From NCBI GenBank assembly GCA_016709225.1, contig JADJEE010000012.1, positions 2,243,630-2,307,629 of the forward strand: a stretch of DNA of 64,000 bases. The letters are read 5' to 3'. The stretch's first letter is position 1. Every line of letters begins with the position of its first letter. The notes under the pieces are model-generated. The model was not told where the DNA came from and did not search any database. It worked only from the letters and a program-made list of their open reading frames with translations. The position numbers were made by a program, and so were the translations under genes. This stretch comes from Deltaproteobacteria bacterium. Its GTDB lineage: Bacteria > Myxococcota_A > Polyangia > Nannocystales > Nannocystaceae. Of this stretch, positions 1,895 to 37,638 are shown one piece after another.

Positions 1895-1903
1895 CCACCG
1901 AAC

Positions 1904-2091: not shown

Positions 2092-2092
2092 G

Positions 2093-2889: not shown

Positions 2890-2921
2890 GGCTGGGAGGC
2901 TAGCACAGCTCGGCCGGCGGA

Positions 2922-3327: not shown

Positions 3328-3455
3328 AGAACCGATTCCAGTTGTTCATGCGCAACGGCGTGATGAAGCTGATGGGAGTACCGTGGGTCGCGAGGCTCGC
3401 CGCCGGCAAGAGCTTCATCGACGCCATCCGGCTGCCGCCGCCGCCCGACACGTGA
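3328..3455 (+). pseudogene. Duplicated 3' fragment of the FAD monooxygenase gene (copy of 1767-1894)
   Basis: Near-identical nucleotides encode NRFQLF(M/V)RNGVMKLMGVPWVARLAAGKSF(I/N)DAIRLPPPPDT. There is no monooxygenase body upstream of it. Confidence 0.6.
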
Positions 3456-3464
3456 CCACCGAAC

Positions 3465-4091
3465 ATGCCCCGACCGCGCTTCCACAAGCTTCCCCCCGAG
3501 CAGCAGCAAGAGATCGTGCGCGCAGCCCTCACAGAATTCTCCGAGCACGGCTTCAACGCCGCGTCGTTGAACCGCATCATCGACGCGGCCGGCATCTCCA
3601 AGGGGTCGATGTACTACTACTTCGACGGCAAGGAGGACCTCTACGGCCACGTGGTCCGCGTCGAGCTCGGGCGGCTCTTCGAGGCCTCCGGTCCGTTCCC
3701 GGTGCCCTCCGCCCGCGATGCCGCCAGCTTCTGGGCCACGCTCACGGAGTACTACGGCCGCATCATGGGCGCGCTCATGGCCTCGCCGGCCCTCGCCGCG
3801 CTCGCCCGTGGCTGGCTCGCGGCGTCGGCCAGCCCCGCGCTGCAGCAGGTCCAACGCGAGATGGAGTCGGCCGTGCTGCCGTGGTTCGAGCGGGTGCTGA
3901 CCGCCGGCCAGCGCGCCCGTGCCGTCCGCAAGGACATCCCGACCAGCCTCGCGATCGCGATCGTGTTCGGCATGGGCCAGGCCATGGACACCTGGCTGCT
4001 CACGCAGGAGCTCGACGCCAAGTCGCTGCGAAAGTACGGCCCGATCTTGATCGGCATGTTCCGACGAACCCTGTCACCCGAGGAGCCCTGA
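3465..4091 (+). CDS. TetR/AcrR-family transcriptional regulator
   Basis: N-terminal HTH (ALTEFSEHGFNAASLNRIIDAAGISKGSMYYYF). 208 aa. The stop overlaps the RBS (GGAG at 4082-4085) of the next gene. Confidence 0.9.
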   Translation: MPRPRFHKLPPEQQQEIVRAALTEFSEHGFNAASLNRIIDAAGISKGSMYYYFDGKEDLYGHVVRVELGRLFEASGPFPVPSARDAASFWATLTEYYGRIMGALMASPALAALARGWLAASASPALQQVQREMESAVLPWFERVLTAGQRARAVRKDIPTSLAIAIVFGMGQAMDTWLLTQELDAKSLRKYGPILIGMFRRTLSPEEP

Positions 4092-4092
4092 G

Positions 4093-4770
4093 ATGGACAT
4101 GTACGGCCACAAGCACTCGAGCCTGCCGCAGAAGACGGTGATCGTCGCGATCGAGCTGGTGCTCCTCGGGATCGCAGGCCTCGTGCTGTTCGGCCCGCTG
4201 GGCGCCAGCTTCCGCGCGTTCGGTGATTCGCCCCACCTCGGTCGCAACCTGACGCTGCTGGTCTTCGACATCGTGGTGTTCGCGCGCTACCTCGCGACGA
4301 TGTTCGTGTTCGTCGAGCGGCGGATCCCCTGGGACGAGGCATTCTCGATCCCGCTCGCGTTCGCGCTCTACCTGGTCGGCTTCCCCTTGCTCGCGAAGCC
4401 GGCGTCGACGGGCTTCGGTGCGCTCGAGCTGCTCGGGATCGGCCTGTTCGTCGGCGGATCGTTCATCAACACCTACGCCGAGTACCAGCGACGCCGCTTC
4501 AAGCGACGGCCACAGAACGCCGGCCAGCTCTACACGGGTGGATTGTTCGCCATCACGATGCACCCGAACTATTTCGGCGACCTGCTGTGGGTCGCCGGCT
4601 TCGCCTGCGTCACCCACAACGCCTTTGCCTGGCTCATCCCCGCGTTCCTGCTGGGATTCTTCTACTTCTACAACATCCCCAAGCTCGACGCCTACCTGCG
4701 CAGTCACTACGGCGCGGCGTTCACCGCCTACGCGCAGCGAACGAAGCGGCTGGTGCCGTTCGTGCTCTGA
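4093..4770 (+). CDS. Membrane protein of the DUF1295 / ICMT / steroid-5-alpha-reductase-like methyltransferase fold
   Basis: Multi-TM, 225 aa. The C-terminal motif (HPNYFGDLLWVAGFA) is typical of this family. 2 nt after the TetR stop, so translationally coupled. Confidence 0.75.
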   Translation: MDMYGHKHSSLPQKTVIVAIELVLLGIAGLVLFGPLGASFRAFGDSPHLGRNLTLLVFDIVVFARYLATMFVFVERRIPWDEAFSIPLAFALYLVGFPLLAKPASTGFGALELLGIGLFVGGSFINTYAEYQRRRFKRRPQNAGQLYTGGLFAITMHPNYFGDLLWVAGFACVTHNAFAWLIPAFLLGFFYFYNIPKLDAYLRSHYGAAFTAYAQRTKRLVPFVL

Positions 4771-4926
4771 CGGTGCTCTGCTTGGGTGATCCGTCACCTG
4801 TCGCCGCGGGCACCGTGTCACCGACCTCGACGAGGTTCTACGGGTGTGGCGAGTGACGGCGGTGCGAGGCACCTCGCCATCGACTCGTCGCTTGCCTCCG
4901 TCCTGATCTCCCGGCATCGTCGAGCG

Positions 4927-5511
4927 GTGGTTCGCACCTTCGCGTTGCTCGGCATCCTCATCGCCGCATGCGACCGCTCCGAGCCGTCGCCGGCCGGCCA
5001 CGACCCCGCGTCGACGCCGACGGCCGACGAGCCGTGCGCGCGGGACGAGGACTGTGTGTTCGCGAGCGGCTGCTGCACCGGCTGCTCGTTCTTCAGTGGC
5101 CGCACCGCGAGCGCGCGCATGAGATCCGCGAGCGAACAGGCCAGCGAAGATCGCAAGTGCTGGCTGCGCGGATGGTTCGAGGACTGCCCGCATGTCGACT
5201 GCGCCTCGCCGCCGCCGTGTCGCCTCGATCTCGGCCCGGCGTGCGTGGAGGGCCGTTGCCGACCCCGCGCGACCGGGGTCGTGGGCGACGCCAACGATCG
5301 CTGTCGGGCCGACGCCTGCGGCGAGCCACCGGCGTTCACCGGCTCCGACTGCGATGACTTCGCCCAGGCGGCGTACGAGCGCTGCGCGTGCCTCGACGGC
5401 GGCGGCCCCTGCCCGCCGGAGATCTGGCGCGGCCTGTGTGCGGACGCCAGCCGCTGCGTGGGAGACTCGCCAGGCGTCGCGGTGACGCGCGCGACCGCCG
5501 ACTGCCCGTGA
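4927..5511 (+). CDS. Cys-rich secreted lipoprotein, hypothetical
   Basis: GTG start before the signal (VVRTFALLGILIAAC), many paired Cys. The start is uncertain; the track ORF begins at 4786. Confidence 0.45.
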   Translation: MVRTFALLGILIAACDRSEPSPAGHDPASTPTADEPCARDEDCVFASGCCTGCSFFSGRTASARMRSASEQASEDRKCWLRGWFEDCPHVDCASPPPCRLDLGPACVEGRCRPRATGVVGDANDRCRADACGEPPAFTGSDCDDFAQAAYERCACLDGGGPCPPEIWRGLCADASRCVGDSPGVAVTRATADCP

Positions 5512-5586
5512 TCGATGACGCCACGACCATGTGTGCGACGCCGCGGCGGGTGCGGGACGCCGCCCACGCGGCGAATGGTCGCTCGT

Positions 5587-6939
5587 TCACTCCTCGAACG
5601 GGTTCGCGAACGCGGGGTCGAGGAGGAACTCGTCGTCGGTCATCGACTCGAGGAATGCGATGACGGCGTCGATCTCTTCGTCGGTCGCGGGGAATCCGCG
5701 CACCAGCCCCGACTTGAGCGGGCTGACCCGACCATCGCCGGCGTACGGGCCCGTCTCGGTCACGGTGCCACCCGCGGCGTAGTGGTCGAGCACGTCGCGG
5801 AGCGTCGCCTTGCTGCCGTCGTGCATGTACGGCCCGGTCACCGCGATGTTGCGCAGCGACGGGGGCCGGAACAACCCGCGATGGTCTGGATCGAAGGTCA
5901 CCTCGAAGAGGCCCTGATCGTACGGCGGATAGCTGCCGTCGCCACCGACGTTGTAGAGCCCGTTGTTGAAGAACGGATACTGGATCGACCCCGGGTCGGA
6001 GTCCGCGTCGCGGTACGACGTGGTGAGGTTGATGCCATTGTGGCAGTGGAAGCACTCGAAGCGCTCGCCGAAGAACAGCGTCATGCCCTGGCGCTGCTGC
6101 TCGGTCAGCGCGTCGTGGTCACCGGCCACGAAGCGATCGTAGGGGCTGCGACCCGGGATCATCGTGCGACAGAAGCTCGCGAGCGCGAACACGATCTTGT
6201 TGACGGTCGCGCCCGACTCGCTCTCGGGGAACGCGGCCGCGAACATCGCTGCGTACATCGGATCGTCGTCGAAGCGCGCGAGCACCTCGGCCTCGTTGCC
6301 ATCGTTGATCCCCAGCTCGACCGGATTGTCGTTGCGTAGCGGCACCTGCAGCTGGTCCTCGAGCTCGAGCAGCACGTTGCTCGCCCACGTGAACGTCGTG
6401 CGATACGCGACCATGCCGAGCGCCTGGCTGTTGCGCTCGAGCACAGTACCGGTCGAGCCGCTCGGCGTCGTCTCGGGGTCTGCAAATCCCAGCTCTTGGA
6501 AGTGGCAGTCGGCGCACGACTGCTCGAGGTTTCCCGACAGGCGACGGTCGTAGAACAGATGCCGCCCGAGCTCGATCTTCTCGGCCGTGAGCGGATTGAA
6601 CTCGGGAATGTAGGGGGTCTCGAGGTGATCCGGCAGCCGCAGCAGCTCGCGAACGGGATCGACCGGGACGCCGCCGCTCGACGAATCGGCGGCGCCCGTG
6701 TCGGTCGGCACACCCGTGTCGTCGCTGCTGCCGCTCGTGCTCGTGCTCGTGCTCGTTCCGGTGCCCGTGCTGCCGCCGCTGCTGCTGCTCGCACTGGCGT
6801 GCTCACCCGCGCCGCTGGGCGACGAGCATCCGATCGACGCGCACAGCGCGAGCGCAAGCGACGTTGCCGCCCGCGCCCGCGGCCGCTCTGCCTCACTGGG
6901 CAGCGAACACCGCATCTTGATCCGCCGCCGAAACGCCAT
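5587..6939 (-). CDS. Di-heme cytochrome c peroxidase of the MauG/MbnH type (MXAN_0977-family di-heme enzyme)
   Basis: Two CxxCH motifs (CADCH, CFHCH). Signal peptide with lipobox (LALALCASIGCSS) after a Thr/Ser-rich linker. Start at ATG 6939; an alternative ATG is at 6915. Confidence 0.85.
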   Translation of the reverse strand: MAFRRRIKMRCSLPSEAERPRARAATSLALALCASIGCSSPSGAGEHASASSSSGGSTGTGTSTSTSTSGSSDDTGVPTDTGAADSSSGGVPVDPVRELLRLPDHLETPYIPEFNPLTAEKIELGRHLFYDRRLSGNLEQSCADCHFQELGFADPETTPSGSTGTVLERNSQALGMVAYRTTFTWASNVLLELEDQLQVPLRNDNPVELGINDGNEAEVLARFDDDPMYAAMFAAAFPESESGATVNKIVFALASFCRTMIPGRSPYDRFVAGDHDALTEQQRQGMTLFFGERFECFHCHNGINLTTSYRDADSDPGSIQYPFFNNGLYNVGGDGSYPPYDQGLFEVTFDPDHRGLFRPPSLRNIAVTGPYMHDGSKATLRDVLDHYAAGGTVTETGPYAGDGRVSPLKSGLVRGFPATDEEIDAVIAFLESMTDDEFLLDPAFANPFEE

Positions 6940-8014
6940 CGTCGATGTCGACGCCGAACGAGGCAAAGATGGTCCCACAGTGCGGCTGCATCGGCGACGA
7001 GTGACACTCGACGCCGGGCCCCTCGCCGATGATTTCGAACGTCTTGGGGTCATAGATCGGCGCGAGGAAGTCCACCCCCTCGAGCGCGCGCCCGAGGTCG
7101 ACCGCGACCACACCGGTCGCGAGATCGAACCCGTCGAGGTCGACCTTCGGTGTGTTCAAGAATCCGCACGCGTCTTGGTTCTCGAGCGCGAGCTCGCCAT
7201 CCCCCGCGCAATCGGTGCTCCCGATGTGCAGGTAGCCGCCGCCCGCGACCGCCTCGGGGTCCTCCACGGAGAAGTTGAACACGAAGTGGCGGTAGCCGGT
7301 CGCCCACGACCAGTACATCTCGCCCAGCGGCGACGGAGCCGCCTCCGCGCTCGTGGTGTTGATGAGATCCTTCATCACGGCCTGCGGCACACCGACGTCG
7401 AAGCTGATCCGCGTCACGTCCGCGACCTGCGTCATGCCGGTGATCACGTCGTTCTCGCGCGCGGTGCCTTCGGCGAAGGCAATCGCGGAGGCTTCGCAAT
7501 CGCCTTCGGTGTTGCTGGTGAGATCGATGAGCGAGACCTGTCCGGCATCACTCGTGTACTGGAAGTCGTTGACGTCGAGCTCGACGGTCACCTCGCTGCC
7601 GTCGGCGGCGTACATGTGCAGGTTGCTGATGTAGAACCGCAGATCCGCTGGGCTCGCGGTGTGCTCGCCGTCGGGGCCGAGCCCGGTGATCGTGCTGCCG
7701 CAACCGACCTCTTCGCCGTTGGCGACCGCCGCGAACCGCAGGCTGAACGGCGCGAGCGCCTCGCCGGTCGTGCTTCCGCCGGAGCTGTCGAGCCCGGTCG
7801 GGTCGGTATCGCTCGTCGCCGTGGTGGCGCTGGTGGTGGTGGCGGTCGGGTCTGTCGTGGTCGTCGATGCGGTGGTCGCCGAGGTGCTCGACATCGTCGG
7901 ATCGCCGGTCGAGCCGTCGGCGTTCGTCGAAGTCTCCGCGTCGTCGCCACCGCAAGCGCCGAGGACCGCAGCAAACAAAAGGGTGGGCGCGAGTGTCCGG
8001 CAGTCCATCGTCAT
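6893..8014 (-). CDS. Four-Cys partner lipoprotein of the metallo-mystery pair (MbnP-like)
   Basis: Lipobox (LLFAAVLGACGG), long Thr-rich linker, conserved Cys/His/Met/Trp-rich domain. Immediately upstream of the di-heme peroxidase and overlapping it by 47 nt (23 nt with the 6915 start). This is the partner-then-peroxidase order seen in mbnPH-type pairs. Confidence 0.7.
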   Translation of the reverse strand: MTMDCRTLAPTLLFAAVLGACGGDDAETSTNADGSTGDPTMSSTSATTASTTTTDPTATTTSATTATSDTDPTGLDSSGGSTTGEALAPFSLRFAAVANGEEVGCGSTITGLGPDGEHTASPADLRFYISNLHMYAADGSEVTVELDVNDFQYTSDAGQVSLIDLTSNTEGDCEASAIAFAEGTARENDVITGMTQVADVTRISFDVGVPQAVMKDLINTTSAEAAPSPLGEMYWSWATGYRHFVFNFSVEDPEAVAGGGYLHIGSTDCAGDGELALENQDACGFLNTPKVDLDGFDLATGVVAVDLGRALEGVDFLAPIYDPKTFEIIGEGPGVECHSSPMQPHCGTIFASFGVDIDDGVSAADQDAVFAAQ

Positions 8015-8296
8015 GTGTCGCGACGCTAGCCAGGCCGACCGCGCGCCGCCAGCGAGAATGGGGGGGCGCGAAAATTCGCCACATGCCTGGTGCCGCGTAG
8101 GCTCGAGTCGCGCATTGGGCATCGCAGGTGTTCCGCGAGGTGTTCAAGACTTGGCCAGCGCCGCCGGAGGGTCGCGGTGGCTGCGATGCCGTCGCGAACA
8201 GCGATGCCTCCCGCGTGACAGATCCGCAACGGGCATTCTCCGCCGCGTGCGCTAACCTCGGCGGAGGTCCGCCTCCGACGGGCAGCGGGTAGGATC

Positions 8297-19894: not shown

Positions 19895-22810
<2,916 letters not shown>

Positions 22811-23084
22811 CGGGCGCAATGGACGGGCTCGAACGGCCCCCCGGGAGGGCGACGCAGCGCCCCGCCGGTACCCGATCGAATGGCCAGTCTATCAGTCGCC
22901 CCCACCGACGTCGGCGGCCCGGCCGCTCGTGGGGGCCCTGGCCGTCGACCTGCTCCGCACGCTCGCCACCCCCATCACGACCACGAAATCGCCAACCATC
23001 GACACCCCTGCGGGGTCCGGCCTACCCTCGCGCGCCGAGGCCGCGGCGACGCACGTCCCTTCCCACGGCAGAAGAGGTTCGACC

Positions 23085-25914: not shown

Positions 25915-26078
25915 TACCTCGACACAGCGATAGTGATGGGTCAGAACGCCGTCATGGCCGCGACTCCGCAAGGCGCCGTGCCGCCGGAATACCGGGCGTA
26001 TTTCAAGGTGCGGCAACGCAGCGAGGCGCGGTCAGGGCGGTGTTATGGCCCGTCACTATCGCTGTGTCGAGGTACTAG
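25911..26078. repeat. Palindromic intergenic element: 26-nt perfect inverted repeat (imperfect further in) around a ~116-nt lower-GC core. Probable bidirectional terminator or REP-like element.
   Basis: Left arm ctagtacctcgacacagcgatagtga (25911-25936). Right arm tcactatcgctgtgtcgaggtactag (26053-26078). The arms contain the TAG stop codons of both convergent flanking genes. Confidence 0.6.
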
Positions 26079-26695
26079 CCGGGTGCGGTGTTGCGGCGCA
26101 GCGGCTCGGGCAGCCACGCGTCGAGCATGCTGTGCGGCGGATCGCCCAGCGGTGTCAGCAGCAACGGGGTCCGTCGCGTCGCGATCGGCGAGGCCAGTGT
26201 GGTCTCGCCGAGCGCGAGCTCGATCCGCTTGGCGGCGCCGGCGACCAGCTCGGCGCCGCTGGGCAGCCGCGCCGGGCGACCACGCACCGCCAGCACACAC
26301 TCGATCGCCACGATGATCCGCGAGCGCTCCGAGACGGGCCACGCGCTGGGATCGTGCTCGCCCCACGGCACGAGCGCGTCCTCGATGAGCGGCAGTCGTC
26401 GCGTGACCTCCAGCTGCAGTGACTCGCCCGGTGGCAGAGCGCAGGCGGTCGGCCACACCGGCATCGCCGTCGCCGCGGCCCACGGCGCGGGCCGAAAGCG
26501 CCCTGCGCCCACGACGATGCAATCGTCGCCACCGTGCTGGCAGTGCCACCAAGCCCGAGTGCCGGTGGGATCGAGCAGCATGGGATGGATCGGCGCACGC
26601 GTGTCGTTGCGCAGCACGATCGCGAGTTCGAGGCGATCACCGCGCACACGTGCGTCGACCCGGAGCGGCACCGAGGTTGCGACGACGATCGTCAT
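26075..26695 (-). CDS. Hypothetical protein (second candidate immunity gene of the PAAR array)
   Basis: 206 aa. ATGA stop/start overlap with the upstream ORF. Protein-like composition. No signal peptide. Confidence 0.45.
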   Translation of the reverse strand: MTIVVATSVPLRVDARVRGDRLELAIVLRNDTRAPIHPMLLDPTGTRAWWHCQHGGDDCIVVGAGRFRPAPWAAATAMPVWPTACALPPGESLQLEVTRRLPLIEDALVPWGEHDPSAWPVSERSRIIVAIECVLAVRGRPARLPSGAELVAGAAKRIELALGETTLASPIATRRTPLLLTPLGDPPHSMLDAWLPEPLRRNTAPG

Positions 26696-27291
26696 GGACT
26701 CCGCGACCGCAGTCGACGCAGCTCAACCGGCAAGAGATGATCGACGGTGCTCATGATCCCGCGCGGCAGCGGATCGGGAAGCACCGCGCGCGCGATCGTG
26801 CTGGGCGCGGGCAGCTCGGCCCACGCCCACGCGGCGATCACCGGCTCGACCAGCCCGATGCCATGGCTGTCGGTGCGCGCGTCGTGGGTGGCCGCGACCG
26901 CAGCGACCGGCACGACCTGCACGCCGGCCAGCACCCGCAACACCGGCACGCGCTCGACTTCGAGGGCGGCGGCGCGGGCGATGGCGGTCTCGGTGAGGCG
27001 ACGCCCGAGCGAGAGCGTGCGCTGCCAGCCGCGCTCGGGATCGATGCGTTCGCCGCGGGGCAGGATCGGCGCCGCCGACAGCAAGCCGTCCGGCACGCGC
27101 ACCTGACCGAACCACACCAGGGCGCCATCGTTGCCGATCGACTGCACCACCGGACGCGCGCGGGGGCCTTGGCAGTCGCGAACCAACGCGAAGCAGCTGT
27201 CCTCGATCCGCAGCCGCAGGCTCAGCCGCAGCTCGCCGCGATCGATCGCGATCGCAGCGTCGAGTCGGTGGCGAGGGCTGGCTGCGTTCAT
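26692..27291 (-). CDS. Hypothetical protein (first candidate immunity gene directly downstream of the PAAR-toxin gene)
   Basis: 199 aa. Start is 14 nt after the toxin stop. No family recognised. Confidence 0.45.
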   Translation of the reverse strand: MNAASPRHRLDAAIAIDRGELRLSLRLRIEDSCFALVRDCQGPRARPVVQSIGNDGALVWFGQVRVPDGLLSAAPILPRGERIDPERGWQRTLSLGRRLTETAIARAAALEVERVPVLRVLAGVQVVPVAAVAATHDARTDSHGIGLVEPVIAAWAWAELPAPSTIARAVLPDPLPRGIMSTVDHLLPVELRRLRSRSP

Positions 27292-27304
27292 GGCTCGCGC
27301 TCGC

Positions 27305-28696
27305 TCACGGGAACGGCGACGTATAGGTGGTGCGGGTCGGCAGGCCGGTCTCGGTGCGGTAGCTGTTCTCGGCGGCGACCGTCGAGTACTCCTCGTGGTT
27401 CACCCACCGGCTGTCCCAGCCATGCTCGGAGTTGGTCGCGAGCTGGCGACTCGCACCCTCGGAGTGGTTCGCCGCGTGGTTCATCTCGTGGAAGAGAATC
27501 GCGTCCGAGCTGGTGCCCGGCGCGGGATGGGCGTGGCCGCCGGCGGCCCACGGATTGGCGGGGTGGTTGGCCCAGTTCGAGGGCATGTGCTCGACGGTGG
27601 TCGGCGCCCCCGGCATGCGCAGGCCCGTCGGCGTGTCCATGAACGCGTCCCAGTTGCCGTGATGATCGGCGACGGCGTTGAGCGGGCCGTTCGCGCCGTG
27701 GTACGGCACGATCGTCACCGGCTTGCCCGCGCGTTCGATCCGCTCGAGCGCCTCGCGACCGGCCCGCGTCCGCGCCATGCGTTCGAGATCGCGGGTGACG
27801 TCGTCGGCCCAGCCGGTCGGCGCACCGTGGGGGCTCACGTGCACGTGCTGCAAGTTGCGCACGTAGCGAGCCGCGGTCAGGCGCCGGAACACCGAGCCGC
27901 CCACGCGGAACAACGCCTTGAAGCCCTGGGCGATCGCGAGGCTGAACAGCGACGGGAACGGGATACCGCCGACCACCACGTTCGCCGAGCCCGGGCCGAC
28001 CGTGGTGCCGATCATCGGCCCCATCGGCGGATCGCTGGGCTTCGGCGACGAGAAGGTGCAGTGCTTGGTGATGTCGACCGCGAGCCGAGCCGCGCGCGCG
28101 CCCTCGATCCACACCGACGACGAGCCCAGGAAGATCTCGAACATCGGGAAGTAGCCACCGCACCAGATGCCGAGGCCCATGTCGCCGCAGCGGGCGGCCG
28201 CGCGAGCGTTGACCATGACCGTCGAAGCGCCCGAGAGGATCGGAATCGGGATGATCGGGCCCATGCTCGGCAGCGGGATCGGCACGGGATTGGGCGGCGT
28301 CAGGTTGGGCGGGTGGTTGTGCGCGTGGGGTAGCCCGACGTCGAGGTCCCACATGCGCAACGCCGGGAACGCAGGGAACGCAGGCAGGCCGAGCGCGTCG
28401 GCGATCTGGCCCATGGTCTGGGTGATCGCCATCTCGACGTGGATCGCCGCCTGCACGCCCGCGGCCAGGGTCGCGAGCACACCACCACCACCGCCGGCGT
28501 GACCATCGGCGCCCGCCGGGCCACCGGCCTCGCCGCCGCCGGAATCGGCGTGGCCCGACGCGCGGCCGGCCGCAGCGACCGTGACCCCGCCGGCACCCGA
28601 TCGACCGGCGTTGACCGTCGCGCGCTCGCCCCACTGCGAGTACAGCTCGGCGGCACGCGAGAAGCGGATGTTCGACAGATGATCGAGCACGCCCAT
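27305..28696 (-). CDS. PAAR-like (DUF4150) protein with a C-terminal HExxH domain (putative T6SS-delivered toxin)
   Basis: ATG 28696 with GGAG RBS. Two PAAR-type motifs (NARAAARCGDMG, GARAARLAVDITKHC). Pro-rich linker. C-terminal HEMNHAANH. Confidence 0.7.
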   Translation of the reverse strand: MGVLDHLSNIRFSRAAELYSQWGERATVNAGRSGAGGVTVAAAGRASGHADSGGGEAGGPAGADGHAGGGGGVLATLAAGVQAAIHVEMAITQTMGQIADALGLPAFPAFPALRMWDLDVGLPHAHNHPPNLTPPNPVPIPLPSMGPIIPIPILSGASTVMVNARAAARCGDMGLGIWCGGYFPMFEIFLGSSSVWIEGARAARLAVDITKHCTFSSPKPSDPPMGPMIGTTVGPGSANVVVGGIPFPSLFSLAIAQGFKALFRVGGSVFRRLTAARYVRNLQHVHVSPHGAPTGWADDVTRDLERMARTRAGREALERIERAGKPVTIVPYHGANGPLNAVADHHGNWDAFMDTPTGLRMPGAPTTVEHMPSNWANHPANPWAAGGHAHPAPGTSSDAILFHEMNHAANHSEGASRQLATNSEHGWDSRWVNHEEYSTVAAENSYRTETGLPTRTTYTSPFP

Positions 28697-28698
28697 GG

Positions 28699-30531
28699 CT
28701 ACGGCTCCTCGCTCGGCGGCGCGATCGCCCCGTGTCGGCGTGCGGACTCGATCTCGCGCTTCTTGGCGGCACCCATGCCGAGCTTGTCGAACACCCGCGC
28801 CTTGCGCTGGAGGATGTCGGCGCGCGAGCTGTCGGCGGCATCGCCGAAGGTCTCGGGGACCGCGTTGCAGCAGGCCAGCGCGCGATCGAACTCGACCACG
28901 GCGTCGACGCGACGCCCGGCCTTGGCGTGCGACTCGGCGATCCACGTGCGCGCGTACGCTTCGGCGAGGTGGTTGCGCATGTTGGCGTAGTACTTGGCCG
29001 CGATCGTGTAGCGCTCGATCGCTCGATCGCAGGCGCCGACCATGAAGTCGCAGTGACCGATGCCGGTCATGCCACTGGCCGCGAGCACGGCGTGGTCGTG
29101 CTCGACCGCGACCTCGACGCAGCGGGCGTACGCCTCCATCGCCTTGTCGAACGCGGCGCAGTGGTACAGCGCGCCGCCCATCCCGTACCACGCGCTGGCG
29201 ATCTCGATCGGCTCCTCGGTCGCGTGCGCGAGCTCGAGGCTCTCGATCTGCAGGGCCATGCCGCGCTCGGGATCGCCATTGTGCATGCGATAGGCGGCCA
29301 GCGCCGAGAGGCACCGCAGTCGTTCGATGGTCGGCAGCTCAGGCTGGGCGAGCTTGTCGGTCAGGCCCTTCTCGATCACTGGACCGTCGATGCGAAAGTC
29401 GAGGGTTCGCATCACCGCGCGCAAGGGCGCGCCAGCGAGGCGCTCGACGCCGGTGGCAACGGCGCACACACGGACCTTCGCGCTCACCAGTACACGGGCG
29501 AGTCGCGCCAGCGAGGCGAGGAACTCCTGCTGCTCGCCCGGTGGCACCTCGTCGTCGATCGCAGCGGCGAGCACGACGATGAGCTCCTGCTCGGGGTCGA
29601 GCACGGTGCGTTGCACCCGGAGCAACAGCTGCGCGAAATGGACCTCGGCACCGTGGCGCCCGATCGGAGCGGCGATCTCCGCCAACAGTGCAGCGGTGCG
29701 ATCACCTCGACCCACGCGCTCGGCGTGGGCGTGGACCTGGCGCACGACCGCCTCGGCGACGCGACCATAGAAGTGAATCGGCCGCCAGAACCTGACCTCC
29801 TCGGCATGGACGACCAGCGCGCGGTTGGCCAGCCCGGCCTCGATCAACGCCGAGACCAGCCACGCCTGCCCGCGGCGCGGCGCGTCATAGACCAGCATGC
29901 GCGGCAGCGGATCGATCATGGCGTGGCGGATCGTCGCGCCGATGGCCGCCGCGTCGCCCTGCCGCAGCGCGACCACGCGCGGCCGCGCGACCTCGACGTC
30001 GCGCACGATGCCCGCACTCGGCTCGACCATCAGCAGCAGCTTGAAGCGACCGCTCTCGGTCGCCTCGGTGATCCGGCCGAGCGTCGCTGCGAGCTCGAGC
30101 GAGCGCGCGTCCTCGCGATCGATCGACAGCACCATCACCACGCCCTCGACGAAGGGGTCGAACGCGAGCGCCGATTGCTCGGCGTACTCGGCCAGCAGCT
30201 GCTCGATCGTGCGACCGCGGGAGCCCGCACGCGGATCGAACGGTGGCGGCGGCTCGATCGTGATCTCGGCCGCGGCGGCCTCGCGCACGGCGGCATCGAC
30301 TGCCGCGGCGATTGCCTCGCCGATCGCCGCGCAGTACGACGCGCCATCGACGAAGCGATCGTCCATCGCCGCCCACAGCCGCCGACCATCGTCGGCGAGC
30401 CCGGCGAGCAGCTTCGCCGCCGCGGCCCGCTGATCCGCTGCGGCGCGCAGCTCGAGCACCACCGCGTCGGGCTCGGCGAGGAACCCGTGGATGGCAGTGA
30501 TGCGCGACTGCACGTACTCGGCGAGCGGCAT
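28699..30531 (-). CDS. Large (610 aa) cytoplasmic alpha-helical protein with a TPR-like C-terminus, hypothetical. Possible adaptor/chaperone of the downstream PAAR protein.
   Basis: ATG 30531. Ends 2 nt before the PAAR-gene start. No signal peptide. No catalytic motif recognised. Confidence 0.6.
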   Translation of the reverse strand: MPLAEYVQSRITAIHGFLAEPDAVVLELRAAADQRAAAAKLLAGLADDGRRLWAAMDDRFVDGASYCAAIGEAIAAAVDAAVREAAAAEITIEPPPPFDPRAGSRGRTIEQLLAEYAEQSALAFDPFVEGVVMVLSIDREDARSLELAATLGRITEATESGRFKLLLMVEPSAGIVRDVEVARPRVVALRQGDAAAIGATIRHAMIDPLPRMLVYDAPRRGQAWLVSALIEAGLANRALVVHAEEVRFWRPIHFYGRVAEAVVRQVHAHAERVGRGDRTAALLAEIAAPIGRHGAEVHFAQLLLRVQRTVLDPEQELIVVLAAAIDDEVPPGEQQEFLASLARLARVLVSAKVRVCAVATGVERLAGAPLRAVMRTLDFRIDGPVIEKGLTDKLAQPELPTIERLRCLSALAAYRMHNGDPERGMALQIESLELAHATEEPIEIASAWYGMGGALYHCAAFDKAMEAYARCVEVAVEHDHAVLAASGMTGIGHCDFMVGACDRAIERYTIAAKYYANMRNHLAEAYARTWIAESHAKAGRRVDAVVEFDRALACCNAVPETFGDAADSSRADILQRKARVFDKLGMGAAKKREIESARRHGAIAPPSEEP

Positions 30532-30692
30532 GTTCGAAGGTAGACCGAAACGTAGCGCCGAGGATCCGAGGTGTCCACGTCGCCGCGGGGTCGTGCCGCG
30601 TCGTCGCGGACCCCCGTCGGATGGCTCGATCGCGCACGATCGGGCGCGCAGACGCGAATCCGCAGGGCAGCCCGCGCACTGCTGCTGCGCGA

Positions 30693-31487
30693 TTAATTCT
30701 CGCGCGGGGCCGTACCGCTCGCGCCGTCGCGACAAGGCCACAGGCCCACGAGGTCGTCGCCGCGACGGTACATCCAGCGCATCACCTCGCGCACGACGAG
30801 GTCGTCGTCGTCCACGCGCTGACGAGCATACGCGGGGCCCTTGGGGTCGAGCGCCATGAATGCAAAGAACCGTTCCGAGCCCTCACCGCACGGTGCGTCG
30901 AGGCGATAGACATCGAGGGCATCGTCTTGCCGCTGCCCGACTCCGAACGCGCGGCGCAGCGGTGCGCAGGCCCGCGCGGCCTCGATCAGTCGGTTCATCT
31001 CGCGCTCGTGACTGTCGCCGTCGAGCAGCGGCACCTTGCTGCGCAGGGCCGCGGCACAGGGGTACTCCGCGCAATCGACCACCTCGAGCTCCGCGTCGAT
31101 GCCGCAGGCCTCGAAGGCCTCGTCGACCGTCGCGGACCACTGCTCGGGCGACTCTATGCCGGTCGGCTCGGGGAACTCGTGGCGCACCGCAGCCCGCTCG
31201 CGGCGAGACTCGGCGAGCTCCGACTCGCACCAGCGTTGCCGCAGCTCGAGTTCCTCGCACGAGGCGTCACGCCCGAGCGGGCGCCCGACCGGCGCGCACA
31301 CCAGCGATCGCAACGCGCGTGGAACCGGCTGCGCTTGCGCGGGCTCGGGCTCGTCGGGGGCCGAGGTCGGCGGGATCGCGTCGATGGGCGCAGGCCACAC
31401 GCAGCGCCCAAGCGCGAATGCGGACCCCAGTGCGAGCACGCCGATCGCTGCGCGCAGTACAGACGACACGTGCGATGGCGTGGACAC
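30693..31487 (-). CDS. Secreted Cys-containing hypothetical protein
   Basis: Signal peptide (AAIGVLALGSAFALG). 264 aa. 8 Cys. Confidence 0.5.
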   Translation of the reverse strand: MSTPSHVSSVLRAAIGVLALGSAFALGRCVWPAPIDAIPPTSAPDEPEPAQAQPVPRALRSLVCAPVGRPLGRDASCEELELRQRWCESELAESRRERAAVRHEFPEPTGIESPEQWSATVDEAFEACGIDAELEVVDCAEYPCAAALRSKVPLLDGDSHEREMNRLIEAARACAPLRRAFGVGQRQDDALDVYRLDAPCGEGSERFFAFMALDPKGPAYARQRVDDDDLVVREVMRWMYRRGDDLVGLWPCRDGASGTAPREN

Positions 31488-32685: not shown

Positions 32686-34335
32686 TCAGCAGCCGCCCAG
32701 GCCCGCGATCGCCGGCGCGTTGGGGTAGTTCGCCTTCGCCTCGCAGCCGCGTGCGCTCCGCAGCGACCGCAGCGGCTCGCGCCCGGCGGATTGGTCGGCC
32801 TTGAAGCGCGCCTCGACCATCGCGCCGAGCCCATCGTTGTCGGTGACGCACATGCCGCTGCCATCGGCACCACAGGCCTCGTCGCCGAGCTTGCCCGCGG
32901 CGAGCGCCTCGGCGAGCGCCTGCAGCGAGGCCTCGTCGGCCTTCGCGAGCGCGATGAACTTGCCCGCCGTTGGCGACGCCAGCGGAATCGAAGCCGGCAG
33001 GTCGGTGCCACCGATGCCGAAGTCGTCCTTGTGCACGGTGAGGATCTCATCGAGCAGCGGCACGAAGAGCTCGGAGTTCTTGGCGCCGGTGAAGCTCTTG
33101 GCCTTCACGCGCGGCAGCGCGTTGTGCCAAAGCCCGCAGCGGAACGACGACAGCGTCGGCGTGGTCCAGTCCAGCGCCCGCACCCGCATGACCTGGTCGG
33201 CCGTCAGCGCGCGCACCGACAGCAGCTGCTTCTCGTACGCGATCGTCGCCGCGCCGCGGGTCGGCATCATCGTGAGCGGATCGTTCGTGGCGGCCGGCGA
33301 GAAGCGCATGACCTTGTCCTGCCACCAATCCCACGGCCAGCCGGTCCCCATCAGCTGGAAGTAGACCGATGCGAGCCCCTCGTCGATGGTCGCATTGGTG
33401 GAGATGAGGCCGCTCTTGCCGTCCTCGGTGACGTACGTGAGCTGCTCGTCGCAGAACAGCGGCCGCAGCAGCGACATCGCCTCATCGACGTTGGCGGGGT
33501 TGCGACGCAGCCGCAGACGCGCCGTGGCGATGCGCTGCGTGTACGCCGAGCGGATGGTCTGCTCGAGCCGCGCGGCCGACTTGCGGAAGCTCGAACCCAC
33601 GCCCGCCAGCTGCTTGAAGTGCGGCGCCGCTGCCGTCTTGTCGGGCACGTGGTGCTCGAAGCTCACCGGCTCCGCGAACCAGTGCTGCCAGGGCGCCGAC
33701 AGCTCGTTCATGATCGGCGTCATCGGCATCTTCAGGCCCTCGATGTGCTCGGGCTGCTCGTGGCACTCCCGACAGTCCGACGGCGCGACCTGCAGCGCGA
33801 CCGCGGTGTCGCTGCCCTCGACCGGGGTGCCCTTGTAGAAGCGATACTGGAACGCCGCCGAGTCCCACGCGAACATCTCGATGGTTCGGACATCGACGTC
33901 GACGCCATCGGCGTCGGCAAACGACAGCGCGAAGAAGGCGAGATCGGCCTTGGTGCGATCATCGGAGCACACCGTGTTGACCACGCGGGGGAACGCACCG
34001 CCGCCATCGGCCACGAGATCGTCGGAGATCACGTAGCTGTCGATGGTGGTCTCGGCGCAGCCCTGCTGCTTCGCGATGCCCTTCAACAGGTCGAGATACC
34101 CGACCTCGAACTGGCCCTCCTCGTCGACCTGCGTGCGCAGGAAGGTCGCGATGGGGTCCTGGAAGCCCGCGAGCTGCTCGGCGACCGGGCCGTTCGCGTC
34201 GCACTTGCCGTCGACACACGCCGCACCATCGTCGCCGTCCTCCTCGCCCTCCTCCGCGCAGCCGGGCAGCAGGCTTGCCAGCGCGAGCGCGAGACCCAAC
34301 TCGAGGGGGGAACGGCGGCGAGACGTCGCAGACAT
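32686..34335 (-). CDS. Secreted lipoprotein, hypothetical (549 aa)
   Basis: Lipobox (LASLLPGC). Acidic linker. W-rich. No family recognised. Confidence 0.6.
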   Translation of the reverse strand: MSATSRRRSPLELGLALALASLLPGCAEEGEEDGDDGAACVDGKCDANGPVAEQLAGFQDPIATFLRTQVDEEGQFEVGYLDLLKGIAKQQGCAETTIDSYVISDDLVADGGGAFPRVVNTVCSDDRTKADLAFFALSFADADGVDVDVRTIEMFAWDSAAFQYRFYKGTPVEGSDTAVALQVAPSDCRECHEQPEHIEGLKMPMTPIMNELSAPWQHWFAEPVSFEHHVPDKTAAAPHFKQLAGVGSSFRKSAARLEQTIRSAYTQRIATARLRLRRNPANVDEAMSLLRPLFCDEQLTYVTEDGKSGLISTNATIDEGLASVYFQLMGTGWPWDWWQDKVMRFSPAATNDPLTMMPTRGAATIAYEKQLLSVRALTADQVMRVRALDWTTPTLSSFRCGLWHNALPRVKAKSFTGAKNSELFVPLLDEILTVHKDDFGIGGTDLPASIPLASPTAGKFIALAKADEASLQALAEALAAGKLGDEACGADGSGMCVTDNDGLGAMVEARFKADQSAGREPLRSLRSARGCEAKANYPNAPAIAGLGGC

Positions 34336-34557
34336 GGCTCGCGCTAGTAGTGCGGGATCGCGGCCGGCCGTTCGCGACGATCGCCCGCGAAGGGGCATTT
34401 GGAGTGGAAACCCGTCACGCCGCAGGCGAAGGCGCGACCGCCCGTGCGGCGCCACGCCGTCTGGTTCGCGCGCGCCTGCGCGGGCAATCTCACGGTCTTT
34501 GCGGCGGGGCCGATCACGTCGGTACGCGACCGCTCAGGGCGACGCGACGATCGGTCG

Positions 34558-37500
34558 TCACGGCCGCACGAGCGTCGCGAGCCACGCGTCGATCTCGGCG
34601 CGCTCGGGCGCGGCCGGATCGTAGAGCGCTTGCGCGGCACGGGCGAGCTCGTCCACGTCGGATCGCGAGCCGCCGCTGGCCCAGGTCGCCTCGGCGAGTC
34701 GGCGGCGTGCGGTCGCGCGCTGATCGGCCGACGCACCGCCGCGATCGAGACGCTCCTGCGCCTCACGAGCCGTGGCAAGGGCCGCGTCGGCGTCGCCCAG
34801 CTGCAGCTGCGCGGTGCACAGATCGAGCAGGACCGCGCCGAGGTCGGGATGATCGGGCTGCGTCTTTGCCAGCAAAGTCCGAGCGCGCTCGAAATGGGCG
34901 AGCGCCGCGGCCGGGCGCCCGAACGCGAGCTCGTCGTTGCCCAGGCCCACGAGGATGGGCGGCAGCAAGGTGTGCGCGGGGCCCAGCTTCTCCTCGATGA
35001 TCGCGAGCGCCCGCCGGTGATGTGCGAGCGCGTCGTCGAGGCGACCCAACGCTCGTTCGGCGTCGCCGAGGTTGCCGAGGGCGTTGGCCAGCTCGGGATG
35101 GTCCGGCCCGAGCGCGCGCTCGAAGATCGCCACGGCGCGCTCGAGCTGCCGCGCGGCGTCGGCCGGCCGCTTCGCACTGCGCGTGACGACGCCCAGATTG
35201 GTGAGGCTCTGCGCAACGCGGGGATGATCGGGCCCGAAGGCGGCCTCGTTGACCGCGAGCACGCGCGCCATCAATGCGGCAGCCTGCTCGAGATCGCCGC
35301 GACGCCAGTACACCTCGGCCTCGTTCGACAGCGCGTTGGCGACGTCAGGGTGATCCTCGCCGAAGGTGGCGACGAAGATCGCTCGCGCCTGCTCGTAGCT
35401 CGCGAGCGCATCGTCGAGGCGGCCGAGATCGACGAGCGTGGTGCCGAGGTTGTTGAGCGACAACGCCACGTCGGGGTGCTCGGGACCAAGCCGCTCGCGG
35501 AGGATCGCGAGTGCACGCGTGTGATGGGCGAGCGCATCGTCGAGGCGGCCGAGATCGCGGGCCATCACGCCGAGCTCGTTGTGCATCCGCGCACCGCGGA
35601 GGTCACCCTCCTCGCCGAGTCGCTCGACCAGCGACTCGGCCCAGCGCGCCCACAGCTGGCCTTCGGCGGGCCGCACCAGTCGCAGCGCGACGACCACCGC
35701 GAGGCGGCGCGCCGCATCGGCCGCCTCGGCATCCTCGCCCAGCTCGACGGCGGCGAGCACCGCCTGGGTCAGCTCGCGCTCGGCATCCTCGTGACGGCCG
35801 ACCCTCTCGAGCAGTGCCCCGACACGCGCGCGGCTGCGGACGATGAGCGCCGGATCACCGTGCGCCTCGGCGTCGGCGAGCAAGCCCTCGGCCATCGCGA
35901 GCGCGGGTTCGGCACGGCCTGCCGCCTGCAGCGCATCGACGCGGACGAGCTGCCGTTCGATCGCGAGATCGCTCGCATCGCGCTCGGCCGGGGCATGACG
36001 AACCACCCAACCGACGTCCTGGCAGCGCTCGACCGGGGGCAGCTCGGCCGCGAGCAGCAGTGCCTTGCCGACGAACTTCCGGTCGGCCTCACGCGCGACC
36101 TCGAGAAGCGCCGCGAGCGACTCGGCCTCGAGGTCCAGACAGTCGCGCATTCCGGCGACGATCGCAGGGGGCTGCGTGCCGTCCAGCCCCGCACGGCACG
36201 CATCGACGCGCGCGGCGGACCAGCGTGCGGCATAGTCGTCGATGGCGGGCGAGAACTTCGCGATCGTCGGGGTCGCAAACGGCACCTCGGTGGTGCGCAT
36301 CGCGGTCTCGACCTCGGCACGGATGCGATCGTCCCAGTGCTCGTCGATGGCATCGCCCTCGCGATCGCAACCTGCGAGCGCGCGCACGTGGGCGATCCGC
36401 CACGCCGCCGCGCCGCCGCCGGCGAGCGCGAGCAACCCACCCACCGCCAACCAACGTCGACGGCGCTGTCGCGGATCGCGGGCGAGGGCAGCGAGCAGCG
36501 CATCGAGATCTTCGAAGCGGTCGGCCGGCGCCAGGGCAAGCCCGCGATCGAGCACCCGGCGTACGAACGTGGGAACGCCAGTCGCGAGCTTCGGTTCGAC
36601 ACGTCGGCCCGAGAGCACCGCGGCCGCCAGTTCGGGCAGCGAACGCGCGGCGAACGGACGACTGCCGTACACGCCCTCCCACAGCGCCACGCAGAAGCTG
36701 AACTGATCCGAGCGGGGATCGATCGGCATGCTCTGGAACTGCTCGGGGGACATATACGCTGGCGTACCCACCGTCGTGCCGGTGCGCGTCAGATCGGTGG
36801 CGAGCGCGTCGGTGCGCGGCCGCGGCCCGTCGCTCGTGATCTCGTCGACGTGCTGCACCCGCACGAGCCCGAAGTCCATGACGAGCACGCGACCGTCGTC
36901 GCCGACCATCACGTTGTCGGGCTTGAAGTCGCGATGCACGAGCCCCTTGCGATGCGCGGCCGCGAGTCCGCGTCCGGCCTGCATCATGACGGCGATCACC
37001 TCGCTCCACGTGCGCGGACTCGCCTGCAGCCACTGCCGGAGCGTCACGCCCTGCACCAGCTCCATCGCGAGAAACACCTGGCCCTCGTGCGTGCCGACGT
37101 CATGCACGGCGATGACATTGGGGTGGCTCACCCGCGCCATCGCCTGGGCCTCGCGCAGCAGTCGATCGTCGACGCCGGGGCTGGCGGCCGCCTGGTCCTC
37201 GTCGCCGAAGAGCCGATGCATGAGCCGCCCCAGCACGCGGGCCTCGCCGAGCTCCGCATGCAGTCGATGCAGCAGTTTGAGCGCGACCCGGCGGTCGAGC
37301 TCGGGATCGTACGCCGCATAGACGGTCCCCATGCCGCCCGCACCGAGCCGATCGAGCACCACGTAGCGACCGATCGTCTGGCCGCGCGCGAAGCCCTCGC
37401 CGCGTGGGCGGGCACCGGTGCCGTCGGCCGGCCCCGAGCCTTTGGTCGTCTCGGTCTCGCCGCTCACATGCTTCCGCCCGCTTCGCGCTGCCCGCTGGCT

Positions 37501-37638
37501 GTCGTCGGGCGCTCGGCAACCTGTGCGGGACGCCGGTCGCTCGAGCGTACCAGGGTTGTACGCGGCCGCGGCACCAACCCCACCGCGCCGCCGCTCCCCA
37601 CGGCGCATCGCACGGATCGGCTCGCGCCATCGAGCCAC
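34558..37638 (-). CDS. Ser/Thr protein kinase with a long C-terminal TPR array (paralogue of 19895-22810)
   Basis: GAGGMGTVY, VALK, HRDFKPDN, DFG, SPE. About 45-aa insert after the catalytic Lys. About 600 aa of TPR. The start is uncertain (non-ATG in the track; next in-frame ATG at 37608). Confidence 0.85.
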   Translation of the reverse strand: MARWREPIRAMRRGERRRGGVGAAAAYNPGTLERPASRTGCRAPDDSQRAARSGRKHVSGETETTKGSGPADGTGARPRGEGFARGQTIGRYVVLDRLGAGGMGTVYAAYDPELDRRVALKLLHRLHAELGEARVLGRLMHRLFGDEDQAAASPGVDDRLLREAQAMARVSHPNVIAVHDVGTHEGQVFLAMELVQGVTLRQWLQASPRTWSEVIAVMMQAGRGLAAAHRKGLVHRDFKPDNVMVGDDGRVLVMDFGLVRVQHVDEITSDGPRPRTDALATDLTRTGTTVGTPAYMSPEQFQSMPIDPRSDQFSFCVALWEGVYGSRPFAARSLPELAAAVLSGRRVEPKLATGVPTFVRRVLDRGLALAPADRFEDLDALLAALARDPRQRRRRWLAVGGLLALAGGGAAAWRIAHVRALAGCDREGDAIDEHWDDRIRAEVETAMRTTEVPFATPTIAKFSPAIDDYAARWSAARVDACRAGLDGTQPPAIVAGMRDCLDLEAESLAALLEVAREADRKFVGKALLLAAELPPVERCQDVGWVVRHAPAERDASDLAIERQLVRVDALQAAGRAEPALAMAEGLLADAEAHGDPALIVRSRARVGALLERVGRHEDAERELTQAVLAAVELGEDAEAADAARRLAVVVALRLVRPAEGQLWARWAESLVERLGEEGDLRGARMHNELGVMARDLGRLDDALAHHTRALAILRERLGPEHPDVALSLNNLGTTLVDLGRLDDALASYEQARAIFVATFGEDHPDVANALSNEAEVYWRRGDLEQAAALMARVLAVNEAAFGPDHPRVAQSLTNLGVVTRSAKRPADAARQLERAVAIFERALGPDHPELANALGNLGDAERALGRLDDALAHHRRALAIIEEKLGPAHTLLPPILVGLGNDELAFGRPAAALAHFERARTLLAKTQPDHPDLGAVLLDLCTAQLQLGDADAALATAREAQERLDRGGASADQRATARRRLAEATWASGGSRSDVDELARAAQALYDPAAPERAEIDAWLATLVRP

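Follow-up and report, generated by a model that had tools for sequence, protein, structure and literature searches.

The locus analysed here, a compact run of minus-strand genes within a window of 64,000 nucleotides (the whole stretch of DNA examined), raises the question of what kind of system these genes encode. In a preliminary description, five nearly gapless genes had been read as a candidate polymorphic PAAR toxin–immunity module. The five ORFs were confirmed with respect to strand and coordinates, with a GC3 coding signal in each called frame, but the conserved unit consists of four genes and not five: g610 (28699..30531; ATG start at 30531, MPL...), g463 (27305..28696), g199 (26692..27291) and g206 (26075..26695), all on the minus strand. 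The distance of 2 nt between the g610 stop and the g463 start (TAGCCATG) and the ATGA overlap of g199 and g206 were verified, and 13 nt separate the g463 stop from the g199 start. The secreted Cys-rich protein that had been counted in the array is encoded by a neighbouring gene, g264, which was rejected as a module component: it lies 161 nt upstream of g610, is present in near-identical strains only and is replaced by unrelated genes at the other loci showing the upstream region. All four module genes are labelled 'hypothetical protein' in GenBank, on which even a plain annotation is an improvement.

g463 was annotated as a PAAR–M91 polymorphic toxin (PF05488 and PF14891) and predicted T6SS spike-tip effector. 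PF05488 (PAAR_motif) scored 28.2 bits against a cutoff of 27 over residues 152–205, a marginal excess of 1.2 bits, and the NCBIfam model T6SS_PAAR_dom remained well under its cutoff (27 against 124). The PAAR domain of the preliminary description was retained and its DUF4150 (Tox-PAAR-like) label was dropped, since PF13665 gave no match in the Pfam search even at E ≤ 1. The PAAR motifs read INGxPAARCGD and EGARAAR in the homologues and NARAAARCGD and EGARAAR in g463. Seven putative metal ligands (H124, H126, H128, C170, C179, H212 and C213) are invariant across 25 sequences, and the family profile weakly matched the solved PAAR proteins 4jiv_D (E 0.006) and 4jiw_D (E 0.012) at the PAAR motifs. 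Reading the N-terminus of g463 by eye revealed no evident prePAAR motif. Homologues of g463 (n = 238) include some named 'M91 family zinc metallopeptidase' by NCBI and many annotated by JGI as Zn-binding protein involved in type VI secretion.

The conserved trafficking module of g463 (residues 72–280; 27857..28483, minus strand) is arranged as hydrophobic helix, PAAR core, hydrophobic helix. It is 64–98% identical across loci and its alignment is gapless through the PAAR core; the hydrophobic peaks, at residues 73–91 and 238–256, are borderline TM-like (KD about 1.6). Among the 120 homologue clusters listed, 81 matched over the full length with M91 and 39 matched residues ~72–280 only and had other C-terminal domains, in some cases PF15644 or PF20148. 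Judged from these alignments, g463 fits the polymorphic toxin pattern of a constant trafficking module with exchangeable C-terminal toxins (Zhang et al., 2012).

The C-terminal domain had been described as an unfamiliar toxin fold. It is a recognised one: residues 296–458 (27323..27811, minus strand) matched PF14891 (Peptidase_M91, the NleD/Tox-HopH1 zincin) with 38.3 bits against a cutoff of 25 (E 2.2e-9, profile positions 13–176 of 176), and the domain is a predicted zinc protease. The metallopeptidase-like motif HEMNHAANH reported earlier falls within this domain; on checking the translation, HEMNH was placed at residues 403–407 (27476–27490), so that g463 contains H403-E404-x-x-H407 and, downstream, E443-N444. 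An HExxH motif followed by [DE]N is the signature of Tox-HopH1 (PMC3482391). Conservation of at least 90% in 78 sequences was found for H403, E404, H407, E435, E436, N444, Y446 and R447, and BoNT-like light chains were weakly matched by the family profile. Comparison of g463 with its counterpart in a 93%-identical strain (L011) gave 24 synonymous and two non-synonymous codon differences, which argues for strong purifying selection on the toxin. The same domain, with HExxH and [DE]N, occurs in other NleD/HopH1/Tox-HopH1 toxins, including Tpe2 of P. aeruginosa PA14 and PAAR-RHS-M91 of Salmonella Dublin; T6SS effector roles have been predicted for both, and the T6SS is a listed delivery route of Tox-HopH1 (PMC8867033, PMC9846239, PMC3482391). 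In g463, in contrast to PAAR-RHS-M91, the M91 domain is joined straight to PAAR without an Rhs cage.

T6SS effectors are commonly identified by searching next to known adaptor genes (DUF4123, DUF1795 and DUF2169 families). As had been reported, g610 lies outside all three (no Pfam match at E ≤ 1); at this threshold only sub-threshold TPR_12, SNAP and TPR_1/2 matches were obtained, and PDB sequence matches were absent outside the TPR region. The g610 family is rare: 1.84 billion representatives yielded about 39 clusters below E 1e-30. Its members all begin with MPL and align over their full length, as does L019_575; forms of about 400 residues align with the C-terminal two-thirds, lacking all of the first alpha/beta unit and the greater part of the second, and occupy the same position beside PAAR. 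The earlier reading of g610 as TPR-like holds for residues ~383–582 (383–582 corresponding to 28786..29385, minus strand), modelled as five TPR-like helical hairpins, but not for residues 1–375 (29407..30531, minus strand), modelled as two five-stranded alpha/beta units with a tentative resemblance to P-loop NTPases (MalT/ORC/AAA+). Assignment to the class II type III secretion chaperones was rejected: TIGR02552 (LcrH/SycD) gave 16.5 bits against a cutoff of 104.8, and those proteins (SycD/LcrH/PcrH/AcrH) serve another secretion system, have about 150 residues and carry no NTPase-like domain, so that the likeness is one of analogy and not of membership.

The linkage of g610 to the PAAR gene was assessed with nine PAAR homologues chosen blind to gene context, which are independently sampled loci. 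A g610 relative was found immediately upstream, on the same strand, in all nine, including two whose PAAR proteins carry non-M91 toxins; in eight of the nine the gap was 13 nt or less or the genes overlapped. The pairing noted in the preliminary description is conserved across phyla, and the tight spacing or overlap points to stoichiometric co-production of the two proteins. At five loci vgrG precedes the g610 relative, which in turn precedes the PAAR gene; the first two are immediate neighbours in L019, L020, L021 and L024 and are separated by one small ORF in L008. We propose that g610, translationally coupled to g463, acts as its dedicated accessory protein (a T6SS PAAR chaperone or adaptor). 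Its TPR half would bind the conserved PAAR-module region, probably the hydrophobic helices flanking the PAAR core, and would maintain this module in soluble form up to its mounting on VgrG. TPR proteins are promiscuous binders, and a chaperone, a co-effector and a regulator cannot be told apart by gene adjacency alone.

A close parallel is provided by the Eag (DUF1795)/prePAAR effectors such as EagT6–Tse6, in which an accessory gene likewise lies directly upstream of the PAAR toxin and an immunity gene downstream, and in which hydrophobic segments flank the PAAR core as in g463. Eag proteins shield the hydrophobic N-terminal region until VgrG loading (PMC12881460), and the same role may apply to g610. 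In contrast to Eag proteins, g610 has no DUF1795; it is several times larger and combines a pseudo-NTPase with TPRs in place of the small Eag fold. The same genomic slot, from vgrG to spike-tip effector, is occupied by DUF2169/Tvp (with DUF4150 PAAR-like proteins) and by DUF4123 Tap/Tec adaptors, which are required for an effector-loaded VgrG–PAAR spike (PMC13373197). g610 matches neither, and its partner is a PF05488 PAAR protein, not DUF4150. Alternatively, instead of acting as a chaperone, g610 might extend the spike structurally or ride on the PAAR tip as co-secreted cargo or a co-effector. The linkage data are also compatible with this, and a protein of 610 residues is large; a paper on the RIX domain reportedly describes secreted adaptors and co-effectors in the T6SS. 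We nevertheless regard such a role as unlikely.

Two distinct immunity candidates had been described downstream of the toxin. Their position was borne out, but they constitute one family duplicated in tandem. An HMM built exclusively from the downstream genes of other loci matched g199 (E 9e-14 to 1e-26) and g206 (E 1e-16), and nothing else in the six-frame translation of the window. L003_228, a lone downstream gene, matched both g206 (E 3e-13) and g199 (E 6e-9), and further members (L019_184, L020_186, L008_180 and L007_194) were linked to the two by BLASTP similarity. L016 carries both paralogues, so that the pair occurs in at least one relative. On sequence grounds, the two are tandem paralogues that have diverged within one unannotated cytoplasmic family. 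For g199, neither a signal peptide nor a TM segment was found, and searches of Pfam, NCBIfam and PADLOC gave no match. The genes of this family either overlap the upstream toxin gene or are separated from it by no more than about 30 nt. Since the family was found after M91 toxins only, with unrelated ORFs downstream of non-M91 toxins, both proteins are probable immunity proteins, which would protect the producing cell and its kin by blocking the protease.

Immunity proteins that reside in the cytoplasm imply that the protease has its target there. While NleD has host MAP kinases as targets, the g463 protease would have a bacterial one; should g199 and g206 indeed confer immunity to M91, NleD-like enzymes would have a bacterial cytoplasmic target and the family would offer a handle on their bacterial cleavage targets. 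The candidate immunity protein in Salmonella, of 110 residues with a TM segment, is unlike either. Cognate immunity proteins are normally expected to diverge in step with the toxin, and here the candidates are 43–45% identical between loci with toxin domains that are 88–89% identical. This much faster divergence would suit proteins that assist the protease domain, such as activators, or rapidly evolving ORFs of no relation to it, as would the lack of a listed immunity family for Tox-HopH1 in PMC3482391. Against these alternatives, the genes lie directly downstream and track the toxin domain, not the PAAR module; their products are small and cytoplasmic, and tandem copies are a typical feature of immunity genes. 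Roles other than immunity are accordingly considered quite unlikely.

The NTPase-like half of g610 also invites comparison with STAND NTPases carrying TPR sensors (MalT, Avs, NLR-like), and g610 could control toxin expression or activation as a sensor or regulator of STAND type, or could serve in anti-phage defence and adjoin the toxin gene by chance. Sequence-level similarity of g610 to STAND NTPases was not found outside the TPRs. Among 31 members, none has Walker A (GxxxxGK[ST]) or an acidic Walker B within its first 400 residues; the corresponding segment of g610 is DAPRRGQA, and the family shows no conservation there. g610 lacks DNA-binding and effector domains as well as a PADLOC match. 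The 400-residue forms dispense with most of the NTPase-like half and still stand beside PAAR, and the tight spacing with the PAAR gene likewise speaks against a regulator or chance neighbour, which we judge improbable. Returning to the chaperone, the half predicted to be dead for nucleotide binding would serve as a scaffold. Opinion is evenly balanced on the wider proposal that g610 represents a new class of T6SS spike-loading chaperone or adaptor, occurring in more than one phylum, built from a dead AAA+/STAND-like domain and TPRs, with a short form of ~400 residues, and recognising helix–PAAR–helix whatever the toxin, and that g199/g206 form the first M91/Tox-HopH1 immunity family. If correct, a STAND-like NTPase scaffold would have been turned into a secretion chaperone, and effector searches in Myxococcota, Gemmatimonadota and other little-studied phyla, in which PAAR toxins of the g463 kind abound, would gain a new marker in this further adaptor class.

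For the locus itself, the best explanation, which we hold to be likely, is that the module (26075–30531), from a Nannocystaceae-like myxobacterium, comprises an orphan T6SS PAAR–M91 effector, an immunity pair and the dedicated accessory protein g610, the upstream Cys-rich gene being unrelated. The PAAR domain of g463 would sit at the tip of a VgrG spike whose gene lies in another part of the genome, and the NleD-like zinc endopeptidase would be injected into neighbouring cells. Apart from one new accessory family, the system is of an ordinary kind. The original toxin–immunity reading survives in its outline (accessory gene upstream, immunity candidates downstream, orphan setting) and was revised in its details (DUF4150, toxin fold, two immunity genes and Cys-rich gene).

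The orphan setting, already pointed out from the lack of tss and vgrG genes, was confirmed: tblastn with VgrG, VipA/B, Hcp, TssE/F/M and TagF detected no T6SS gene in the 64-kb window, nor did Pfam searches of 30 further window ORFs. The module is thus an orphan PAAR island, with T6SS delivery in this organism assumed. Although the missing vgrG and a MITE-like element inserted at the module's 3' end might suggest a decaying relic no longer used by any spike, this is improbable, given four intact ORFs, the purifying selection noted above, the same orphan layout in L002, L007, L009 and L018, and the frequency of orphan vgrG and PAAR islands in myxobacteria (PMC5801462, PMC8651086). At other loci the T6SS context is direct: vgrG lies just downstream of the module in L022, and VipA/B, Hcp, TssE/F or TssM are encoded near it in L019, L021 and L022. 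In L019, a canonical vgrG–DUF2169–...–Tox-PAAR-like–AHH island adjoins the vgrG–TPR–PAAR–M91 island.

The module consists of four minus-strand genes: g610 (28699-30531), encoding a 610-residue accessory protein with a TPR half; g463 (27305-28696), encoding a PAAR-M91 toxin, M91 being the Peptidase_M91 (NleD/Tox-HopH1) zincin; and the immunity candidates g199 (26692-27291) and g206 (26075-26695). A Cys-rich protein is encoded upstream of g610 on the same strand (g264, 30693-31487). Third-position GC bias was clear in the called frames of all five ORFs (0.84-0.91). The g610 stop lies 2 nt from the g463 start, with GAGGAG just upstream, the g463 stop is followed by g199 at a spacing of 13 nt, and an ATGA overlap joins g199 and g206. 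The preliminary description of an array almost without gaps holds for these junctions and fails for g264, because 161 nt separate it from g610. Identical proteins in GenBank (MBK6922534-37, MBK8235273-76, MBK8716405-08 and MBP7287871-74) are annotated as hypothetical proteins of MAGs named 'Deltaproteobacteria bacterium' and 'Nannocystaceae bacterium'. In the NCBI models g610 has 678-680 residues and a GTG or TTG start 68-70 codons upstream (window 30532-30741), overlapping the 3' end of g264. This deposited start is probably too long, because the alignment of all family members begins with MPL and supports the ATG at 30531 as the start.

Pfam searches of g463 matched residues 152-205 to PAAR_motif (PF05488; 28.2 bits, cutoff 27) and residues 296-458 to Peptidase_M91 (PF14891; 38.3 bits, cutoff 25, profile positions 13-176 of 176). 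The DUF4150 label initially given to this protein is wrong, because PF13665 was unmatched at E ≤ 1; PF05488 scores instead. The PAAR module (residues ~72-280) comprises, in order, a hydrophobic helix, an IPFPALPALR motif, the PAAR core, in which His and Cys residues are invariant, then GGxPxPSL and another hydrophobic helix; Kyte-Doolittle peaks of ~1.6 were located at residues 73-91 and 238-256. Identity between loci is 64-98% in this module, and the alignment is gap-free through the PAAR core. Among 78 sequences, conservation in the M91 domain is 90% or higher at H403, E404, H407, E435, E436, N444, Y446 and R447, and the domain fits the Tox-HopH1 (NleD-like) definition 'HExxH, [DE]N' (Zhang et al., 2012; PMC3482391), for which the T6SS is named among the delivery routes and no immunity family is given. 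A sequence search of the PDB with g463 alone found nothing. Searched with the g463-family profile, the PDB gave weak matches at the PAAR motifs to two PAAR proteins, 4jiv_D (E = 0.006) and 4jiw_D (E = 0.012), and over the zincin region to BoNT-like light chains (weak, E = 0.015-0.7).

The search for relatives of g463 covered 5.8 billion proteins and yielded 238; NCBI gives some of these the name 'M91 family zinc metallopeptidase', and in the JGI annotation many are a Zn-binding protein involved in type VI secretion. When the 120 listed clusters were compared by local BLAST, 81 proved full length with M91, and 39 matched residues ~72-280 only and had other C-termini, some of them PF15644 or PF20148. 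Such a pattern, in which one trafficking module stays constant and the warheads are exchanged, is the hallmark of a polymorphic toxin. M91 domains have previously been predicted in T6SS effectors, namely a PAAR-RHS-M91 protein of Salmonella Dublin (PMC8867033, where VgrG2b is also cited) and Tpe2 of P. aeruginosa (PMC9846239), and the toxin type is therefore already known. Compared with contig L011, from a 93%-identical strain, g463 has 24 synonymous and two non-synonymous codon differences and is under purifying selection. The corresponding values are 72/35 for g610, 11/9 for g199 and 8/3 for g206; selection within the module is uneven, the toxin being most constrained and g199, the first immunity paralogue, least.

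For g610 the sole Pfam match was a sub-threshold TPR_12 at residues 443-509; DUF4123, DUF1795 and DUF2169 were not matched. A word-indexed search recovered five relatives only, and a homologue search with a 12-sequence TPR-partner profile returned mostly generic TPR proteins and the same five relatives. An exhaustive scan with HMMER, covering 1.84 billion representatives, gave 39 below E = 1e-30. Full-length members have ~575-620 residues, and ~400-residue forms match only positions ~330-590. The family is real but rare; pattern scans with the g610 alignment located four loci in genome contigs and two in metagenome contigs. One cluster representative (P0001, 637 residues, on a 2.5-kb contig) has a WD40-like N-terminal stretch of 70 residues absent from the window protein, probably a mis-assembly or gene-call artefact.

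The g610 model built from five sequences was mediocre (pLDDT 72), and the N-terminal half was remodelled with 31 sequences. A GxxxxGK[ST] motif was present in none of the 31 family members, and no conserved acidic Walker B was found among them; the loop that follows strand 1 of the second unit (DAPRRGQA in g610) is unconserved across the family. When the family profile was compared with two STAND-TPR proteins using hhalign, the TPR regions alone aligned. Because of the missing Walker motifs and the restriction of the hhalign match to the TPRs, we describe g610, on the basis of the models, as a putative STAND/AAA+-like architecture without nucleotide binding and not as a STAND NTPase. Such reuse of an NTPase-like scaffold is mildly surprising.

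Genomic linkage was assessed in a sample of nine PAAR-module proteins whose neighbourhoods had not been seen beforehand (P0006, P0009, P0012, P0016, P0017, P0036, P0058, P0093 and P0119). A TPR protein is encoded immediately upstream on the same strand in all nine, and the TPR and PAAR genes overlap or lie ≤13 nt apart in eight. By BLASTP, the upstream TPR proteins of loci L007, L008, L018 and L019 (the last a Longimicrobiales MAG) are homologous to g610 over the full length, with E values down to 2e-24, and the 400-residue upstream proteins of L020, L021 and L022 are homologous to its C-terminal two-thirds only. L021 and L022 carry non-M91 toxins, yet a g610-type TPR gene lies upstream; the TPR protein therefore goes with the PAAR module, and the small ORF downstream goes with the toxin. 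Both linkages, TPR to PAAR module and small ORF to M91, are specific and extend across phyla.

Direct BLASTP comparison of g199 with g206 was not significant (E = 0.12). L003_228, the sole gene after the toxin in a Nannocystaceae MAG, matches g206 (E = 3e-13) and g199 (E = 6e-9), and L007_194 likewise matches both. An HMM built only from the downstream genes of other loci detected g206 (E = 1e-16) and g199 (E = 9e-14) even when the closest orthologue was omitted, and gave no other match better than E = 0.007 among 450 six-frame segments of the window. Since these intermediates and the HMM link the two, g199 and g206 are, judged by sequence, diverged tandem paralogues of a single family. Both paralogue types (45 and 41% identical) follow an 89%-identical toxin domain in L016, and in L002 a g199-type gene precedes another ORF that the end of the contig cuts off after its start. 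Members are located after M91 toxins in Myxococcota, in the Longimicrobiales MAG (L019_184) and in L020; in the sample, the two PAAR proteins that carry different toxins are followed by unrelated ORFs of 258 and 93 residues. No relatives of the family were found in Pfam, NCBIfam or PADLOC, and the PDB gave nothing significant. A single Glu is invariant, and the Pro and Leu before it reach at least 90% conservation (P102, L103 and E105 in g206). Members have no signal peptide and no convincing TM segment. We infer a cytoplasmic immunity protein, which would imply a cytoplasmic target for the protease. The immunity orthologues are 43-45% identical where the toxin domains are 88-89% identical, which we count as an oddity.

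Among the relatives, vgrG immediately precedes the TPR gene in L019, L020, L021 and L024; in L022 it is on the opposite strand, a short distance downstream of the module. It is also upstream in L008, where one small ORF intervenes (7760-8182; 140 residues, no Pfam match, this locus only). Genes for VipA/B, Hcp, TssE, TssF, TssM or TagF occur near the module in L019, L021 and L022. The g610-type gene occupies the slot normally taken by adaptor/chaperone genes. An eCIS or phage-tail origin of the PAAR protein was rejected because its relatives sit among vgrG, VipA/B, Hcp and TssE/F/M genes. L019 has a second effector island, of canonical type, immediately upstream of its vgrG-TPR-PAAR-M91 island, and both accessory solutions thus stand side by side; this second island (1-6036) comprises vgrG, genes for a DUF2169 and a ketoacyl-synthase-like protein, Tox-PAAR-like (DUF4150), an AHH nuclease and small ORFs. 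Transposase/integrase genes flank the module in L018 (6686-7969) and L020 (1976-4701 and 12758-20830), which suggests that it is mobile as a cassette.

Orphan versions, with unrelated genes upstream, are those of the window, L002, L007, L009 and L018; for this reason g264 was rejected as a module member. Its linkage to the module was not found in other lineages, and it has no Pfam match. The g264 protein has ten Cys residues and a hydrophobic N-terminus, and no other stretch of the locus diverges as much between strains as its gene (58-88% nucleotide identity with indels, ~75% amino-acid identity; 90-100% nucleotide identity for the four module genes). No T6SS genes were found in the window by tblastn with 18 T6SS-locus proteins or by Pfam scans of 30 other ORFs.

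Alongside the observed domain identities, polymorphic architecture, paralogy of the immunity candidates and vgrG/T6SS context of the relatives, the following steps are predicted. By analogy with Eag and class II T3SS TPR chaperones, g610 would bind the conserved N-terminal region of g463, plausibly at the hydrophobic helices, and would pass the toxin to a VgrG whose gene lies elsewhere. A cytoplasmic protein in the target cell would be the substrate of the M91 domain, and g199 and/or g206 would inhibit the protease. Both the type of system, in which an accessory gene and an immunity gene accompany a PAAR toxin, and its M91/Tox-HopH1 warhead are known, and this is not a new kind of system. The accessory and immunity families appear undescribed in the searchable literature, in which no TPR chaperone of PAAR effectors was found and the only T6SS-linked TPR proteins to emerge were TPR-like immunity proteins and the periplasmic localisation factor TslA. 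The finding is solid and useful for effector discovery.

Flanking genes encode Ser/Thr kinases with TPRs, an FMN reductase, a copper monooxygenase, a glyoxalase and cytochrome bd. Two large minus-strand Ser/Thr kinase genes with long TPR_12/TPR_10 arrays (19895-22819 and 34558-37638) bracket the region, and a 589-residue ORF at 32686-34455 has no Pfam match. PADLOC gave no matches. A 160-bp insertion (25915-26074) lies between the convergent stops of g206 and the copper monooxygenase gene; no second copy was found in the window. It is absent from L011 and L023, which are otherwise collinear (93-97% nucleotide identity) and in which the two genes overlap at CTAG. The 22-nt terminal inverted repeats of the insertion are perfect (TACCTCGACACAGCGATAGTGA), and with CTAG at either side it resembles a MITE flanked by a 4-bp target duplication.
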